A DNA stretch of 5,329 nt. Source: a virus (lineage: Duplodnaviria; Heunggongvirae; Uroviricota; Caudoviricetes). The notes below the pieces were generated by a model, which was given only the letters and a program-made list of their open reading frames with translations, did no database searches and was not told where the DNA came from. A program made the translations under genes and the position numbers. The DNA lies in IMG/VR virus record IMGVR_UViG_2534682252_000027, positions 1 to 5,329 of that record. One strand, given 5' to 3'. Positions 1 to 5,329 of the stretch are shown here, one piece after another. Position 1 is the first letter of the stretch. Every line of letters starts with the position of its first letter.

Positions 1-200
1 GCCTTACGCCGGTCTTCTTTAATCTTGAAATACAGGTTCGTCAGATATGTCAGCAGCCCAAACAGCAGACTCCCCAGCACGCCTATTGCCGCCCACTGAG
101 ACGGGGAAACCCTGTCCAGCAACTGCAGGAACCAGTAGCCCGTTCCCACCGCTGACGTGGTGTATGACACACCTGTTGTGATTTTTTCCATCTGGTACAT
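1..200 (-). CDS. S: Class II holin (pinholin) S, S21/933W-like; start present, 3' end runs off the window
   Basis: Minus-strand translation from ATG at 198-200 gives [66 protein letters not shown]..., with two hydrophobic segments and the [13 protein letters not shown] motif I recall from phage 21 S21 / 933W S. Second in-frame ATG at 189-191 (dual-start pattern). GGAG Shine-Dalgarno in GGGAGACGGGGT just upstream. The track ORF 19..216 is a different frame of the same DNA. Confidence 0.85.
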
Positions 201-234: not shown

Positions 235-265
235 GAAAAAGGCCAGCAGCTGTTTACTGATGGCC
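235..265 (-). terminator. Putative intrinsic terminator between the 90-aa ORF and the holin gene
   Basis: Minus-strand RNA GGCCAUCAG-UAAACAG-CUGCUGGCC (9-bp stem with one mismatch, 7-nt loop) followed by UUUUUC. On the plus strand the same hairpin has no downstream T-run. Confidence 0.45.
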
Positions 266-276
266 CTGACTCCCCG

Positions 277-549
277 TTACAGCATCATGACCGATTCGGG
301 TTGAGGTTCAGTCGCATCGGCGACCGGTGATTCAGGCTGAACTTCACCGCTCTCTGCGGTGGTATCTCCCGCTTCAGTCGGTGGCTCTGCCTGTACACCA
401 AGCAGTTCATCCAGAATGGCATCCACTTCTGCATCAAGACGCGCTTCCAGGTTATGGCGAAGTTTCTGTTTCAGTGCGCTCCGGACTTCTTCAGAGCGCA
501 GGACGTCCTTCACTGCCTCTGCAGTGACCAGGGATGTAATTTCTGACAT
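277..549 (-). CDS. Hypothetical 90-aa acidic protein ([30 protein letters not shown]..., Glu/Asp/Pro-rich C-terminus)
   Basis: ATG at 547-549, stop TAA at 277-279. Protein-like composition with a predicted amphipathic helical N-terminal half and an acidic tail, and E. coli-like codon choice (CTG, GAA). The track's longer 148-aa version (GTG at 721-723) adds an Arg/Pro/Ser/Gly-rich N-terminus that looks like out-of-frame translation. Only a weak SD (GAGAAAA). Confidence 0.5.
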
Positions 550-589
550 GGGATTTTCTCGTCGAAAGGTGTGATTAAGAAAGTTGCCG

Positions 590-769
590 CTAAATGAGCG
601 GCTCTTCGGGTTTGCTTCCGGCTGACTGACTGGCGCTGATTTTCTCAGCGGCCCTTTTGTCAATCTGTCTGCGCCAGAAGTCACGCATGGCCCTGTACCC
701 ACCCGAAAGGAGATACAGCACACAGACCACCGTACAGAAGTACAGCATTAACTGGTTCAGAAATGTCAT
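590..769 (-). CDS. Hypothetical 59-aa small membrane protein (MTFLNQLMLYFCTVVCVLYLLSGGYRAMRDFWRRQIDKRAAEKISASQSAGSKPEEPLI)
   Basis: ATG at 767-769 preceded by GGAAAG (ACGGAAAGAAATTATG); stop TAG at 590-592. One hydrophobic helix followed by a basic then acidic tail. Below the 60-aa cutoff of the ORF track, so found by hand translation. It overlaps the implausible N-terminal extension of ORF 277..723 in another frame. Confidence 0.4.
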   Translation of the reverse strand: MTFLNQLMLYFCTVVCVLYLLSGGYRAMRDFWRRQIDKRAAEKISASQSAGSKPEEPLI

Positions 770-866
770 AATTTCTTTCCGTTATTGTTGACAATAAGAA
801 CTGTTTTCATTAAAAACCAGAGTACGAAAGTATCGTTCCTTTATTTTTTCTCCATAGGTATCACCA

Positions 867-902
867 CCGCCAGCGTCCATTCCTGTCGCTGGCGGTTTTT
901 TT
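867..902 (+). terminator. Strong plus-strand rho-independent terminator abutting the nanS-p stop codon
   Basis: CCGCCAGCG (867-875) / loop tccattcctgt / CGCTGGCGG (887-895), a 9-bp GC-rich stem followed by seven T (896-902). On the minus strand the hairpin is preceded by A7 and followed by UGGUGAUACC, so it is not a good minus-strand terminator. Confidence 0.55.
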
Positions 903-903
903 A

Positions 904-2841
904 TCATGCCGCAGTGTCTGTGCTGTTCACTTCCACCGCAATGCTGTCTATCAGTACCGGGTAAGTCGCACCTCTGGTAATGTCTGTCACATGCAGTTTA
1001 TCCGCCGCAAAGGCACTGACCGGTGACTGCGTCAGCGTGAACGGTGTGCCATCCTGACCATCAATAACCGGCGTCACCTGCAGGCTGTTATTCCCGGCAA
1101 AGCGGAAAGCCAGCGTATGCCATTCGTTATCAAATGCGCCAAAGGTTCCCAGTTTCAGGTTGTTTGTCGCCACTTTCGCATTGTGGTACATCACATTCAG
1201 GTCTTTTGCATCTGTCTGGATGTAGAACGCTGCCAGCAGGTTATTCCCCCCGTCTCCGGTCAGGGCAACGCCCTGTGGCAGTGAAGATACCGGCCAGTAA
1301 AACGCCATAACATACTGGTTCGCAGCCAGCGCTCCCGAAACCTTAAAGCGGCAGCGAATCTGCCCCCCTTTCTGTAACAGAGCCGCACCGTTGCCCGCGG
1401 CGTACTCCAGCACCCAGCTGCTTTTACCGGCTTCCTTGGTCAGCTTCACTGCCTTACCTCCGGTTCCCTCCGCATCGCTGACCACTTCTGCCCTGCCGCC
1501 ACTGGCTGACCATCCCTGTACTTTCAGGCTTCCCTCTGACTCGCTGGCAAGGTAAGAGAGCAGTGTTGTGACGCCTGTGGCTTCTGCACCGGAAGGCGAT
1601 GACGGGCGCACCTCTGATACTGTCGATGATGCCCCCGCGTTTAGCGCCACTCTTCCCGCATGGCGCAAAATCGCCGTTGCCAGACGGTCGGAAATAATCC
1701 CGCGGCGAGCCCATGAACTGAAATGGCTCGCCCTGTCCTGTGACGTCCAGGTGGCTGAGCTGTCACGCCATTTCGAACCGTAATATCCGATACCCGGAAT
1801 GTCCGGGTCTTCTTCCGGTTTGTTCGTCGGCACATTCACCCCGTTCTCATCCGTCATGAACGGTACGAAATGGATATTCTTTTCCGTTTTGTTTTTATAG
1901 CTGCCATACACCGTCTGGTACGTGGATTCGTTCTTCTGCTTCCAGAAATACGTCGTGTCCCCGCATATCCAGGGAACACCGCCAGCAGAGCCACCGACGC
2001 ACTGGCCTGCCATATCCGCCAGGTCTGCACGGAATTTATCAACCAGCGCACCAAACTGTGCGGCGTGATTTACCGGCGTACCGCCAAAATCAAATTCCCC
2101 CTGCATCCACACCACGGCAAACAGCACATTTTTCGGATTCTTCTTCAGTGCTGCTTTTGTTCGACCGATAAGGTCCTTATACAGCGGCTTGTCCACACCC
2201 CAGCGGGTTGAATTCTCCGAGGCACCACTCGCGTCACTGTATGTGCCATCGGCTCCGGTGGTGAACGCTGAACCACCACGACAGCACGGAACCAGCAGAA
2301 TGCCCGCATTCGCCGGTATAAACGGCAGCAGTTTTTTGGCGATATGCAGCCCTTGCCCCACGGTTCCGTACTGCCCCTTTGACAGGTCCGCTTTCGGATG
2401 GTTAAGGCGGCTCATGTCCTGCACATCATGCAGACAATGGTCCGCCGGAATGATGTCGTTATATTTACAGGCGACACCGCCCGGTGTCACCGTACTGCGA
2501 CGCGCTAACTGTTTAATACGTGGATCAGGGCTGTCGAATGTATCCGGCAATGGCAGTCCCTCACCGTATGACATACCATTGGACTGACCAGCAAGCGCGA
2601 TCACATAGTAATATTCTGGCGCAACAGAAGGCGCTGAGGTCGTCGGACGGTTGCCTGGCTCCTCTGGTGATGAGATGCTCCCCTCACTCACAACTGGCTG
2701 GATGAACTCCGCACCATAACCAGCTGTCGAAATCAGCGCACTACCATAAGGCTGCCACCCTTCCTTCAGTTTTTGAGTTATTCGTTTCGCAAGGTCTGAC
2801 GGCGACGCCGCCCTGACAACATCATAGTGTTTAAATGCCAT
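904..2841 (-). CDS. nanS: Prophage-encoded sialate (9-O-acetyl-N-acetylneuraminic acid) O-acetylesterase, NanS-p type; N-terminal DUF1737-like region + SASA/SGNH esterase domain + C-terminal domain
   Basis: 645-aa ORF with ATG at 2839-2841 preceded by GGGAGGA; double stop TGATAA. N-terminus MAFKHYDVVRAASPSDLAKRITQKLKEGWQPYG and esterase motif YYYVIALAGQSNGMSYG (catalytic Ser in GQSN) match my recollection of the 645-aa NanS-p proteins found downstream of stx in Stx phages such as 933W. Position upstream of the lysis cassette is the same. Confidence 0.9.
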   Translation of the reverse strand: MAFKHYDVVRAASPSDLAKRITQKLKEGWQPYGSALISTAGYGAEFIQPVVSEGSISSPEEPGNRPTTSAPSVAPEYYYVIALAGQSNGMSYGEGLPLPDTFDSPDPRIKQLARRSTVTPGGVACKYNDIIPADHCLHDVQDMSRLNHPKADLSKGQYGTVGQGLHIAKKLLPFIPANAGILLVPCCRGGSAFTTGADGTYSDASGASENSTRWGVDKPLYKDLIGRTKAALKKNPKNVLFAVVWMQGEFDFGGTPVNHAAQFGALVDKFRADLADMAGQCVGGSAGGVPWICGDTTYFWKQKNESTYQTVYGSYKNKTEKNIHFVPFMTDENGVNVPTNKPEEDPDIPGIGYYGSKWRDSSATWTSQDRASHFSSWARRGIISDRLATAILRHAGRVALNAGASSTVSEVRPSSPSGAEATGVTTLLSYLASESEGSLKVQGWSASGGRAEVVSDAEGTGGKAVKLTKEAGKSSWVLEYAAGNGAALLQKGGQIRCRFKVSGALAANQYVMAFYWPVSSLPQGVALTGDGGNNLLAAFYIQTDAKDLNVMYHNAKVATNNLKLGTFGAFDNEWHTLAFRFAGNNSLQVTPVIDGQDGTPFTLTQSPVSAFAADKLHVTDITRGATYPVLIDSIAVEVNSTDTAA

Positions 2842-3034: not shown

Positions 3035-3062
3035 GCCCGCGTCTCCCAGCGCGGGCTTTTTT
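3035..3062 (+). terminator. Plus-strand rho-independent terminator
   Basis: GCCCGCG (3035-3041) / loop tctcccag / CGCGGGC (3050-3056), a 7-bp all-GC stem followed by TTTTTT (3057-3062). No U-run follows it on the minus strand. Confidence 0.55.
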
Positions 3063-3066
3063 GTCC

Positions 3067-3093
3067 ATAAGAAAGCCCCTCCGGAGAGGGGCT
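3067..3093 (-). terminator. Minus-strand intrinsic terminator, convergent with the 3035-3062 terminator
   Basis: Minus-strand RNA AGCCCCUC-UCCG-GAGGGGCU (8-bp stem, 4-nt loop; plus coordinates 3074-3093) followed by UUCUUAU (3067-3073). Confidence 0.45.
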
Positions 3094-3510
3094 GGAGAGT
3101 GGCGCTATGTGCCATTGCATGGTGCCGGGTGCCTCCCGGTGAATTCAGTATCAGCACCTGAATCCGCGATTATCACATATACCTGGTTGCTGATTGCCCC
3201 TCCGCACAGGGGGATTCACCATGCAGTAGTATTTTTAATAAACAGTAAACAAAAAAATCAAGCATTATGCAGGCTGTTTCTTTTTATCACCGGCCACAGC
3301 AATACCACAATGCCGCAGACCAGAGCGCCATCAGTCAGTACCAACATTATCCTGCTGGTGAAATCCATCATCACCATCACTAAAAGCAGGATCACAACAG
3401 CAAGCAGACACAGTTTATAAAACAATGTTCAGAAAACGCATTCAGCATGCCTAAGGTTCTATTCCTACGAATAGCCAACTTGCAACTTAAAATATTATTT
3501 ATGCAGCCAA

Positions 3511-4269
3511 TTAAATTCTGGTCCTTACAATATCAACCTGAAGATTCTTATCTTGTGCTGATTGATAAATCACAAACCTTTTACTACCTGCATTGAAAGA
3601 AGTAGACAAAACCAGACAATTATCATAACGAGCAAGAACATAATACCAACCATCATTATAATTAATCATTTCATATTCTTTCTTAAACTGTGGTTTGTAA
3701 TATCCTGTCAGAAATGAAAAAAGCCAGAAATATGCCACAAAAGCAATCATCACAATCTCAAAAAAATGCTTTTTTATAAATGGCTTATCATAGAAGCATG
3801 ATACCGATAAAAATCGCCCATAAGATCTTATCGAAGTTGTAACCGCCAGCGCAATCGCTGCTGACAGTAGCAAAAGAGGTACCTGAATCTTCTGTCTCAA
3901 TATAGAAAACTCAATAATTGCCGGCACAAACAATAATTCCACAGCAAAATAAAGGCGAAATACATTTAGCTCTTGCATAGAATGTTTTCTTTTCACTGCG
4001 AAAAAGAATACAACACCAATACCCCAACCGATAAGAAATATAGCAATGACGATAACTGCAAAAAATAAACTTCTGGCAACATCATCAACACCTGCACCTA
4101 CAATCCACCATGGGAAGCCGTAGTAAAAAGAAGTACCCCATCCATAGAAATAAGCACTCCCCCATCCAAGGCATCCCATGTAGGCAATAAAAAGTGAAGA
4201 ACTCCTGAGCAGCGCACCATCCTTCATAACCACCCCAATACAAGATGATAACATTGGCTTACAACTCAT
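3511..4269 (-). CDS. Hypothetical AT-rich polytopic inner-membrane protein (~5 predicted TM helices + ~60-aa hydrophilic C-terminal tail); family not recognised; cargo (moron) gene in the Q-to-lysis slot
   Basis: Longest ORF is 252 aa from ATG 4267-4269, which has no SD. The in-frame ATG at 4225-4227 (Met15) follows GGGGTGG and is the more likely start (238 aa). Hydrophobic stretches: LFIAYMGCLGWG, LFFAVIVIAIFLIGWGIGVVFFFAV, VFRLYFAVELLFVPAIIEFSIL, VPLLLLSAAIALAVTTSI, FFEIVMIAFVAYFWLFSFLTG. Hand-counted 60-nt samples are about 32-33% G+C, against about 47-65% in nanS-p samples. It lies immediately downstream of the lambda-like late promoter. Confidence 0.75.
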   Translation of the reverse strand: MSCKPMLSSCIGVVMKDGALLRSSSLFIAYMGCLGWGSAYFYGWGTSFYYGFPWWIVGAGVDDVARSLFFAVIVIAIFLIGWGIGVVFFFAVKRKHSMQELNVFRLYFAVELLFVPAIIEFSILRQKIQVPLLLLSAAIALAVTTSIRSYGRFLSVSCFYDKPFIKKHFFEIVMIAFVAYFWLFSFLTGYYKPQFKKEYEMINYNDGWYYVLARYDNCLVLSTSFNAGSKRFVIYQSAQDKNLQVDIVRTRI

Positions 4270-4506: not shown

Positions 4507-5130
4507 CTAACGTGTGATCGCATTCAAAATGTTGTCTGCGATTGACTCTTCCTTGTGGCATTGCACAACCAGAGCGTCATACAGCGGCTTAACAGTGCGT
4601 GACCAGGTGGGTTGGGTAAGGTTTGGGATTAGCATCGTCACAGCGCGATATGCGGCGCTTGCTGGCATTCTTGAATAACCGACGCCTTTACATCTTCCGC
4701 ACTCTTTCTCAGCAACTATCCCCCACTGCTCTGTTTTGGCTATATCAACCGCACGGCCTGTACCGTGGCAATCTCTGCATCTTGCGCCCGGCGTAGCGGC
4801 ACTACGGCAATAATCCGCATAAGCGAATGTTGCGAGCACTTGCAGTACCTTTGCCTTAGTATTTCCTTCAAGCTTTGCCACGCCACGGTATTTCCCCGAT
4901 ACCTTGTGTGCAAATTGCATCAGATAGTTGATAGCCTTTTGTTTGTCGTTCTGGCTTAGTTCATGCTTACCGCAGAATGCAGCCATTCCGAATCCGGCTT
5001 GTGATTGCGCCATCCCCATAGCAGCCATCACATCAGTACCGGAAAGAGAGTCAGAAGCCGTGGCCCGTGGTGAGTCGCTCATCATCGGGCTTTTTGGCGA
5101 ATGAAATTTAGCTACGCTTTCGAGTCTCAT
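4507..5130 (-). CDS. Q: Late-gene antitermination protein Q (lambda-type)
   Basis: 207 aa, [44 protein letters not shown]...[12 protein letters not shown]...[21 protein letters not shown]...[13 protein letters not shown]. Near-identical over its full length to lambda Q as I recall it, including the Cys-rich zinc-binding motifs. ATG at 5128-5130, stop TAG at 4507-4509. Confidence 0.93.
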
Positions 5131-5329
5131 GCGCCTTCTCCCTGTACCTGAATCAATGTGAGGTTTCCGCAGAACACTGCGCCGGTATCTATATACATCT
5201 GGTTGGCAAATTTGAGTGGTTTCACTGCTGGCGTATGACCAAAGATGAACGTGTCCGCGCCTTTGATTTCTTTCACGATCCCGTCTTGTGAGTTGCTGAT
5301 TCGTTCGCGGTTCCAGATTACCTGCTGAT
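5127..5329 (-). CDS. ninI: Ser/Thr protein phosphatase, lambda NinI (orf221)-like; C-terminal fragment, 5' end outside the window
   Basis: Minus-strand frame ending at TGA 5127-5129 translates to ...[66 protein letters not shown]. The GHTP motif and the position immediately upstream of Q match the lambda nin region. Its stop overlaps the Q start in ATGA. Confidence 0.8.

Follow-up and report, generated by a model that had tools for sequence, protein, structure and literature searches.

What are the two small open reading frames between the nanS-p esterase gene and the holin gene of this phage, and what might their products do? The window, that is, the whole stretch of 5,329 nt that was analysed, carries both on the minus strand, and the ORF listing bears out the positions given in an earlier sequence-only reading. 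A 59-codon frame with an ATG start occupies positions 590 to 769, and a 90-codon frame occupies positions 277 to 549, where it begins at an internal ATG (position 549) of a mechanically listed 148-aa ORF that starts with GTG (277 to 723, minus strand). The stop codon of the 59-codon frame (590) and the ATG at 549 are separated by 40 nt (550 to 589), not by the 41 nt counted at first. The upstream gene encodes the 645-aa NanS-p sialate O-acetylesterase (904 to 2841, minus strand; Pfam DUF1737, SASA and DUF6645). Directly downstream is the 5' part of a gene for a P21-type class II holin of the pinholin family (1 to 200, minus strand; PF04971, 111 bits), which has the dual-start motif MYQMEK with ATGs at 200 and 191, leaves the window at its left edge, and is labelled S or class II holin in 933W, Sakai and RefSeq. 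Phages 933W and VT2-Sakai share bases 150 to 950 with 100% identity, and this segment has matches in 323 phage records. In O157:H7, RefSeq annotates exactly these two CDSs at the same coordinates, flanked by the genes for the NanS-p esterase and a class II holin of the P21 type. The locus belongs to a lambdoid prophage of the Stx-phage type, in whose Q-dependent late region the pair lies between nanS-p and the P21-type holin gene.

The sequence-only reading could name no family for either product, and a Pfam search supplied both names. The 59-aa product matches DUF1378 (PF07125) with 134 bits and an E value of 2e-39, its residues 1-59 aligning with positions 1-59 of the 59-position model, and it matches PHROG 494 with an E value of 9.6e-41. 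The 90-aa product matches DUF826 (PF05696) with 101.6 bits and an E value of 2.6e-29 (residues 1-68 on model positions 1-70 of 75) and PHROG 311 with an E value of 2.2e-37. Both products score above the Pfam gathering cut-off, which is 25 bits for each of the two models, and they are almost certainly genuine members of DUF1378 and DUF826. Both genes are already annotated in public genomes, and their existence is not new. Named members are WP_000143458.1 and VT2-Sakai H0119 ('933W Orf25') for DUF1378/PHROG 494, where the window copy is DNA-identical to 933W and Sakai, and WP_001290212.1, 933W L0106 and VT2-Sakai H0120 for DUF826/PHROG 311, from which the window product does not differ either.

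The DUF1378 family is small: a search of 1.84 billion proteins gave only 39 representative clusters at E ≤ 0.001. Two scans of species-representative genomes yielded no relatives, and scans of viral contigs with the most divergent DUF1378 representatives (P0250, P0256 and P0244) gave no matches. NCBIfam holds no model that matches either protein, and the holin and antiholin families in Pfam and PHROGs do not match either of them at E ≤ 0.01. Profile searches against PDB sequences returned insignificant matches only (TRAP-gamma, E 0.07; a tail spike, E 0.24). For the DUF826 model, Foldseek returned none in the PDB and none below E = 3 in BFVD, the two-helix model being too simple to inform. In the literature searched, a single paper names both DUFs at this locus, without a function, and the search found no expression or phenotype data for DUF1378 or DUF826. 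The label 'head completion protein', given to DUF826 in some phage records, is unsupported by Pfam, PHROGs and structure.

Substitution patterns indicate that both frames are under purifying selection and that the shifted frames are not. The dN/dS of DUF1378 is 0.28 overall and 0.16 in its transmembrane part, and that of DUF826 is 0.24 for codons 1-50, which form the helical core, and 0.56 in the tail; the shifted frames of both genes give values of 0.9-2.3. In-frame disruption in homologues, which had been named at the outset as a finding that would speak against the frames, was looked for in DUF1378, and all 124 of the 124 collected copies are intact, and each begins with ATG. Of 82 DUF1378-DUF826 pairs, 80 keep the 40-nt spacing. 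The proposal that DUF826 truly starts at the internal ATG holds up as well: the PF05696 match begins at residue 59 of the 148-aa ORF, RefSeq uses the 90-aa form, and the extension frame has a dN/dS of 1.03, compared with 0.31 for the DUF1378 frame over the same bases. The upstream extension (550 to 723, minus strand) is a non-coding stretch made up of the 40-nt spacer and a reading of the 3' end of DUF1378 in another frame. Because it evolves neutrally, the true start is the internal ATG. Diverged homologues such as locus L099 lack the extension, and the DUF826 ORF there begins at its own ATG. By the same comparison, the database entries of 127-154 aa and PHROG 8301 are start-codon over-calls. 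We also considered a natural DUF1378-DUF826 fusion (PHROG 8301 and the sequence P0128) and rejected it: the long forms result from start codons called too far upstream, in a frame that evolves neutrally, and P0128, a singleton, looks like the product of a frameshift.

The predicted anatomy of the two proteins agrees with the first description of them as a single-pass membrane peptide and an acidic helical protein. The 19-residue Kyte-Doolittle hydropathy of DUF1378 reaches its maximum of 1.98 at residues 3-21, no charged residue occurs in residues 1-25, and residues 26-45 carry a net charge of +3.8. AlphaFold2 models the peptide as one helix (residues 2-50), whose transmembrane part would span approximately residues 3-24 and close in a conserved SGGY motif (conserved helix LLYFCtvVCvLYLlSGGY). 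The invariant columns L9, Y10, F11, V15, L18, Y19, L20, G23, G24 and Y25 come from an alignment (A3) that takes in a Stenotrophomonas phage homologue. DUF1378 is thus predicted to be a bitopic inner-membrane peptide, N-out/C-in, with a basic helix (net charge about +4) at the cytoplasmic face. Against the marks of a holin-type protein, the transmembrane helix and the basic tail are present, but adjacency to lysis genes is found in the lambdoid and spanin contexts only.

The 90-aa DUF826 product has a pI of 4.2 and a net charge of -13. Its AlphaFold2 model shows two helices (residues 10-17 and 20-49) and disorder from about residue 50, with pLDDT below 50 at residues 55-59 and 61-84. The tail is acidic and rich in Pro and Glu and ends in a conserved M-M-L/M tip, M89 being among the invariant positions of the alignment. 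DUF826 is predicted to be a soluble, very acidic protein, in which a short core of two helices is followed by a flexible acidic tail with a hydrophobic tip. The tail is lineage-specific, and copies beside tail-fibre genes lack it and are approximately 57 aa long if read from an internal Met.

The survey of genomic neighbourhoods shows that DUF1378 and DUF826 form a mobile cassette, which is always co-directional with and behind late-region genes in the four settings covered. Lambdoid phages have the order esterase, DUF1378, DUF826, holin. Mu-like prophages have esterase, DUF1378, DUF826 and then com/mom, with the cassette lying between the gin invertase gene and com/mom or a cytosine methyltransferase gene. 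The order is swapped in the third setting, where tail-fibre assembly genes are followed by DUF826 and then DUF1378, and in the fourth DUF1378 stands alone after a spanin gene with an ATGA start/stop overlap. No lysis gene was found near the cassette in the Mu-like and tail-fibre-assembly contexts. The suggestion that these are conserved lambdoid ORFs of unknown function is therefore accurate as far as conservation and function go, but too narrow in host phage, given the Mu-like, tail-fibre and spanin loci. DUF1378 ends a cassette of pinholin, SAR-endolysin and Rz-Rz1 genes in Stenotrophomonas phage BUCT709 and in metagenomic contigs similar to it, and its ATG overlaps the Rz stop codon there. 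DUF1378 also follows the spanins at loci L084, L086 and L088, whose holins and endolysins differ in sequence and size and were classed by reading the sequences rather than by family search.

DUF826 is present at 113 of 122 DUF1378 loci. The linkage of the two genes outlasts rearrangement, because their order is inverted at loci L089, L090 and L092 and they nevertheless remain paired. Among 126 non-duplicate loci sampled, the NanS-p esterase lies upstream of the pair in 103 and a holin immediately downstream in 74, and in the sampled enterobacterial loci with DUF1378 before DUF826, the esterase precedes the pair wherever upstream sequence is present. Within 5,426 E. coli genomes, the pair matches 1,052 and the 3' end of the esterase gene 1,053, the two having been counted separately and their genome overlap not compared. 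In E. coli, the pair seems to be linked to NanS-p no less tightly than to the holin. The neighbouring holin, for its part, occurs without the cassette. The probe covering bases 150 to 950 is carried over at least 80% of its length by only 987 of 2,440 matching genomes, and the pair is missing from prophages whose holin belongs to the same class II family (approximately 90% identity over the matched start). At the collinear locus L124, Q, a hypothetical protein and DUF3927 are joined directly to the holin, and esterase, DUF1378 and DUF826 are all missing. Because of this partial carriage of the probe and the holin of L124 that stands without the pair, we conclude that P21-type lysis does not depend on the pair.

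Our preferred reading, to which we give a probability of roughly 35%, makes the pair a late accessory that is anchored in the membrane, can be dispensed with and perhaps has a role in modulating lysis. The cassette would be made late in the lytic cycle on a transcript shared with the lysis genes, and the DUF1378 peptide would be anchored in the inner membrane. The basic helix on its cytoplasmic side would, in enterobacterial phages, recruit the acidic partner DUF826, the two proteins having complementary charges, and the complex would act on a membrane-associated step of late infection. The likeliest such step would be the timing or efficiency of envelope disruption driven by holin and spanins, with the pair not counted among the core lysis proteins. 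Late expression is inferred from position, since in each of the four contexts the genes run in the same direction as late genes and follow them directly; a search of the minus strand upstream of the pair (770 to 903) for sigma-70 promoter-like sites gave none.

The lysis-timing role suggested by the sequence-only reading is plausible, and the evidence on it points in two directions. Translational coupling of DUF1378 to spanin genes in some phages speaks for it, and against it stand the position of the pair far from any lysis gene in the Mu-like and tail-fibre settings and the prophages that have a holin of this class II family but not the pair. Among the accessory regulators of lysis, the T4 antiholin RI with its cofactor RIII, P1 LydB and the phage 21 antiholin S21-71 represent the combination of a membrane protein and a small soluble partner. 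The DUF1378/DUF826 pair likewise consists of a small membrane protein and a small soluble protein by lysis genes and, like these regulators, is dispensable for lysis itself, with a fitting position in two of the four contexts. However, no similarity in sequence or fold to these proteins was found, and the pair also occurs far from lysis genes. A bolder version, which we regard as unlikely, is that DUF1378 represents an unrecognised class of lysis accessory, membrane-tethered and kept in a fixed ratio to spanins or holin, which together with DUF826 in enterobacterial phages would set the timing or completeness of envelope disruption; the flexible acidic tail of DUF826, with its M-M-L tip, would then be a peptide to which a membrane-associated protein of host or phage docks, or a decoy for such a protein.

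The same distribution also suits a cargo gene unrelated to lysis, and the strongest competitor, possible though somewhat less probable than a late accessory, is moron-type cargo with a host-directed or exclusion role. The membrane peptide, alone or together with DUF826, would then protect the lysogen or the infected cell, for instance by keeping out the DNA of other phages or by binding and modulating a host inner-membrane protein. Classic morons have their own promoter and terminator and are expressed from the prophage, and lambda bor, for example, is carried directly after Rz. The slots that the cassette occupies (between stx/nanS-p and S, directly after Rz, after tail fibres, and beside com/mom and methyltransferase genes), its patchy distribution and its block exchange between prophages are shared with bor, lom, stx and nanS-p. 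One genome can carry up to seven copies of it. It travels with accessory elements, namely NanS-p and sRNA genes, and the holin of L124 does without it. DUF826 is followed by a terminator-like hairpin and TTTTTC (239 to 267, minus strand), read from the sequence between the DUF826 stop codon (277) and the holin start (200), but at -16.5 kcal/mol this is no more stable than shuffled sequences (z = -1.4; 19 of 200 shuffles equally stable), which makes it weak evidence for a terminator. No promoter-like site was found upstream, and the PADLOC defence models contain no family that matches either protein at E ≤ 1. The ATGA overlap with Rz weighs against cargo expressed apart from the lytic genes, at least in the phages that have it, and would therefore place DUF1378 expression there with the late lytic genes. 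A partnership with the esterase draws on the tight linkage described above, and we consider it rather improbable. It holds that pair and esterase form one functional unit, in which the pair aids the localisation, release or activity of NanS-p, a protein without a signal peptide. The order esterase, DUF1378, DUF826 is kept on unrelated lambdoid and Mu-like backbones despite differing esterase N-termini, the trio is in or out as one block relative to L124, and the two separately made E. coli counts are nearly equal. However, where DUF1378 follows spanins or tail-fibre assembly genes, no esterase accompanies it, and some loci have both DUF826 and DUF1378 but no esterase. Neighbouring genes between conserved recombination flanks are moreover co-inherited without a functional link, and no mechanism is known for such a partner role.

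The idea of a toxin-like peptide with a partner, raised by the sequence-only reading, found no support, and we rate it as very improbable. In its type I form, the 59-aa peptide would act as a membrane toxin, and a divergent Esr41-like sRNA encoded upstream, or else the acidic protein, would restrain it. The peptide is small and hydrophobic, and a candidate sRNA lies at 827 to 904 on the opposite strand, with a promoter-like TTGACA-17-TAAAAA 19-47 nt from the DUF1378 start codon; the late transcript, if made, would be fully complementary to it. This arrangement is comparable to ZorO-OrzO and TisB-IstR-1, which are type I toxins with divergent sRNA antitoxins. However, the Esr41-like Rfam match in the window (28 bits) is far below the gathering score of 102, and a joint scan of six other loci found no such RNA at E ≤ 0.5, the ORF listing giving a window-type DUF1378 start in only three of the six (L099, L115 and L125). 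The sRNA pairing is not consistent across loci or contexts: elsewhere DUF1378 is coupled to Rz, its ATG lying over the Rz stop codon, or follows tail-fibre genes, which leaves no room for an antisense gene. The cytoplasmic tail and the protein partner are conserved, unlike in typical type I toxins, late-gene coupling sets DUF1378 apart from ZorO-OrzO and TisB-IstR-1, and up to seven intact copies coexist in one genome.

The position of the pair gives the late-accessory reading its interest, as in major EHEC phages these genes separate the Shiga-toxin/NanS-p cargo from the lysis genes, and approximately one in five complete E. coli genomes match them, in up to seven places each. If the pair tunes lysis, it would affect when toxin and phage are released; under the bolder version, the moment of toxin release could depend in part on the pair in Shiga-toxin phages, where it directly follows stx and nanS-p. 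The directly usable results are a clean gene model, the evidence that the long database entries are over-calls, and a map of four contexts that narrows the experiments worth doing. The region between the two genes contains a further element, the hairpin GCCGCT-cattt-AGCGGC (586 to 602, minus strand), which lies astride the DUF1378 stop codon and was reported as a terminator-like site in the scan. Its folding energy is -11.2 kcal/mol (z = -3.2 relative to shuffled sequences), and it may serve as an attenuator, or as an element for processing or stability, between the two genes.

The two small ORFs, at 769..590 and 549..277 on the minus strand, are real genes that belong to two catalogued protein families, are under purifying selection and occur in four genomic contexts. 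The ORF listing confirms the 59-aa ORF (590..769) and, within the 148-aa ORF (277..723), an internal ATG at 549, as the sequence-only reading had described them; the spacer, given there as 41 nt, measures 40 nt. That reading could name no family for either protein. The Pfam search now identifies the 59-mer as full-length DUF1378 (PF07125, 134 bits, model 1-59/59; PHROG 494) and the 90-mer as DUF826 (PF05696, 101.6 bits; PHROG 311), so that all testable defining features of the two families were found. Both features are already annotated: in E. coli O157:H7, RefSeq places the same two CDSs (WP_000143458.1, 'DUF1378 family protein'; WP_001290212.1, 'DUF826 domain-containing protein') between 'SASA family carbohydrate esterase' and 'class II holin family protein', and VT2-Sakai names them H0119 ('933W Orf25') and H0120 ('L0106'). 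NCBIfam has a model for neither protein, and PADLOC, PDB sequence profiles and Foldseek give no significant matches for the two. The DUF1378 family is small, with only 39 clusters reaching E <= 0.001 when 1.84 billion representative proteins were searched exhaustively with a profile, and has a conserved core, LLYF(C/S)..V(C/S).LYL.(S/A)GG(Y/W), with a basic segment after it. Word-indexed searches with both proteins match Escherichia and Shigella almost exclusively. Only one paper names both DUFs here; it lists the two, lying between nanS-p and S in Stx2a phages, solely as ORFs of unknown function, and literature queries with locus tags, accessions and Pfam identifiers returned nothing useful on the pair. 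The DUF826 gene is labelled 'head completion protein' in some recent phage submissions (records H82, H84 and H98), a label that finds no support in Pfam or PHROGs, in the structure prediction or in the neighbouring genes.

Coding was examined on 136 related loci, drawn from E. coli genomes, metagenomes, IMG/VR and phage records. Each of the 124 DUF1378 copies that tblastn located is intact and has an ATG start, and the 40-nt spacing is retained in 80 of 82 pairs. Nei-Gojobori dN/dS values, from 28 DUF1378 and 33 DUF826 alleles, show purifying selection in both annotated frames. For DUF1378 the ratio is 0.28 (0.16 in the TM part), with 0.92 and 1.87 in the two shifted frames; for DUF826 codons 1-50 it is 0.24, with 2.1 and 2.3 in the shifted frames, and the acidic tail gives 0.56. 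Where the 148-aa ORF overlaps DUF1378, the DUF1378 frame gives 0.31 and the 148-aa frame 1.03; the extension frame is open in many alleles, yet evolves neutrally. In diverged homologues such as locus L099, the DUF826 ORF starts at its own ATG and the open extension is absent, indicating that the internal ATG at 549, proposed earlier as the true start, is the right choice. The N-terminal extension of the long DUF826 entries comes from reading the 3' end of DUF1378 and the spacer (550-723, minus strand) out of frame. The 127-154-aa 'DUF826' database entries, including the extended 'DUF826 domain-containing protein' records P0132, P0134, P0137, P0140, P0148, P0154 and P0177, and PHROG 8301 (139 positions) are therefore over-calls. 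A separate 103-aa database protein, P0221, joins the first 37 holin residues to DUF826 from residue 25 on, and is probably a deletion or recombination product of neighbouring genes in some prophage.

The predicted properties agree with the earlier description of a single-TM peptide and a helical, acidic protein. Residues 1-25 of the 59-mer are uncharged and hydrophobic (Kyte-Doolittle maximum 1.98 at residues 3-21) and residues 26-45 are basic (net charge +3.8), so by the positive-inside rule DUF1378 is predicted to be an N-out/C-in single-pass peptide; its AlphaFold2 model is a single helix, 2-50. The 90-mer (pI 4.2, net charge -13) has AlphaFold2-predicted helices at 10-17 and 20-49 (pLDDT 88-97), is non-helical from about residue 50 and falls below pLDDT 50 at 55-59 and 61-84; it is predicted to be a soluble, acidic protein with a disordered tail. 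This tail is variable except for a constant hydrophobic tip at its end, DMMM, VMML, GTML or STMM in 33 alleles with M89 invariant (277-300, minus strand), which is absent from the tail-less DUF826 homologues adjoining tail-fibre genes. The tip has the look of a short docking motif carried by a flexible linker.

Every gene of interest lies on the minus strand of the window. In transcription direction, the C-terminal end of a Ser/Thr phosphatase-like ORF (5276..5127) and the Q antiterminator (5130..4507) precede an AT-rich island (4269..3258), the STnc100 sRNA (3250..3063), the NanS-p sialate O-acetylesterase (2841..904), the pair (769..277) and a P21-type class II holin, which starts at 200 or 191 and continues past the window edge. 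The island has a GC content of 0.34-0.40 versus 0.49-0.59 elsewhere and looks like a cargo block acquired separately. It encodes a 252-aa multi-TM ORF, which matches PHROG 1521 and has no match in Pfam, NCBIfam or PADLOC, and a 55-aa DUF3927 peptide (PHROG 1470, 'TciB-like inhibition of cell division or resistance to colicin'). Over bases 150-950 the identity to 933W, VT2-Sakai, Stx2 converting phages I and II and many more is 100%, and this segment matches 323 phage records (305 over at least 80% of the query). The window as a whole is a mosaic: none of the complete E. coli genomes in the collection covers 80% of it at one site (best, 63% at 99.5%). The holin has two in-frame starts 3 codons apart (191-200, minus strand; MYQMEK...), an arrangement shared with the lambda S and phage 21 S21 holin/antiholin pairs, in which dual starts are known.

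The new part of the analysis is the context survey. Reference proteins and HMMs served to score the neighbours at 126 non-duplicate loci, a sample biased by the queries used, and four arrangements were found. The lambdoid order, NanS-p, DUF1378, DUF826, P21-type holin and SAR endolysin, occurs at 74 loci, at 4 of which the contig ends before the esterase. Another 33 loci, some ended early by the contig, carry esterase and pair with no P21-type holin within 900 nt. Those read through run from a tail-fibre invertible segment and gin invertase to a NanS-like esterase, whose N-terminus differs from that of NanS-p, then DUF1378 and DUF826, and finally a Com-like zinc-ribbon ORF, accompanied by a Mom-like or cytosine-methyltransferase gene; this is the layout of a Mu-like right end. 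In the tail-fibre context, the pair is inverted (tail fibre, tail-fibre assembly, DUF826, DUF1378, Dam-like methylase; 3 loci with the pair, 4 with DUF1378 alone) and DUF826 lacks the acidic tail, at about 57 aa from an internal Met. At 12 loci, DUF1378 alone follows holin, endolysin and Rz/Rz1. Its ATG overlaps the Rz stop (ATGA) in Stenotrophomonas phage vB_SmeS_BUCT709, and locus L086 shows a similar overlap with an Rz1-like ORF. Holins and endolysins of these spanin cassettes vary in size and sequence; as classed by reading the sequences rather than by family search, they combine a P21-type pinholin or an 89-aa holin with SAR lysozyme, or a 112-aa holin with a 237-aa muramidase-like or a 209-aa GH19-like enzyme. 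The useful outputs of the analysis are this map of contexts and the corrected gene model.

The two genes are linked, DUF826 accompanying DUF1378 at 113 of 122 DUF1378 loci, and the pairing persists through the order swap; DUF1378 is also found without DUF826. Because the cassette is in every context co-directional with the late genes and directly behind them, and no sigma-70-like promoter was found upstream of the pair in the window, late expression is the simplest expectation. A terminator-like hairpin 3' of DUF826 is no more stable than shuffles (z = -1.4). The pair appears dispensable for P21-type lysis, since only 987 of 2440 probe-matching genomes carry most of the 150-950 probe and, in locus L124 (strain AMSHJX01), the same Q, hypothetical protein and DUF3927 genes are joined straight to the holin, the esterase/DUF1378/DUF826 block being absent.

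The spanin-coupled and holin-adjacent contexts lead us to rank first, at a probability of roughly 0.35, a role of the pair as an accessory of lysis timing or efficiency. The basic cytoplasmic helix of DUF1378 would tether DUF826 to the inner membrane, and the complex may act on a membrane-associated late step. T4 RI/RIII and P1 LydB are alike in general layout only, a small membrane and a small soluble protein near lysis genes, and homology is absent. A cargo function independent of lysis, in which the pair would act in exclusion or modulate a membrane protein of the host, is possible but somewhat unlikely; the pair resembles morons in position and block-wise presence or absence, but no promoter of its own was found. 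A NanS-p-linked role is more doubtful. In E. coli the pair seems to track NanS-p closely by a comparison of totals, matching 1052 of 5426 complete genomes against 1053 for the esterase 3' end, at up to 7 and 9 places per genome, respectively. Such tracking need not imply a functional link, because these neighbouring genes are enclosed by conserved recombination flanks. The Mu-like loci do show joint movement of the trio. The toxin-like peptide raised by the sequence-only reading, as a type I toxin, is ranked last and is very improbable, because DUF1378 has a conserved protein partner, its translation is coupled to that of Rz in some phages, and the sRNA nearby is not conserved across contexts, a joint scan of six other loci (E <= 0.5) detecting none. 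Part of the probability is assigned to none of these four readings.

This candidate sRNA, of about 80 nt, lies on the plus strand of the nanS-p/DUF1378 spacer (788-904), opposite to the genes, and would be complementary to the late transcript. It has a promoter-like site, TTGACA (788-793), 17 nt and TAAAAA (811-816), a strong 3' terminator hairpin with U7 (fold z = -4.8) and a full-length, sub-threshold Rfam match to Esr41 at 827-904 (28 bits vs gathering score 102), with which it has the UUUUCUCCAU stretch in common. Zhu, Shabalina and Storz (bioRxiv 2026, 10.64898/2026.05.13.724894) locate PasA/PasC sRNAs in the interval from the sialate esterase to the holin/lysozyme operon, and the position of the candidate matches. 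A 41-aa ORF (782-907, minus strand), annotated in several phage records (VT2-Sakai H0118, '933W Orf24') and not in RefSeq, overlaps the nanS-p stop; it spans the antisense of the candidate and its terminator and is probably not a gene. Just upstream of nanS-p, STnc100 (3063-3250, minus strand; a full-length match to Rfam RF02076 at 140 bits) has a terminator-like hairpin at its end (3093-3074), and a second such site lies on the other strand (3035-3056). In EPEC prophages, the same preprint describes an esterase flanked by STnc100-like (PasD-type) and PasA/C-type sRNAs (10.64898/2026.05.13.724894), the arrangement that STnc100 and the candidate would give here.
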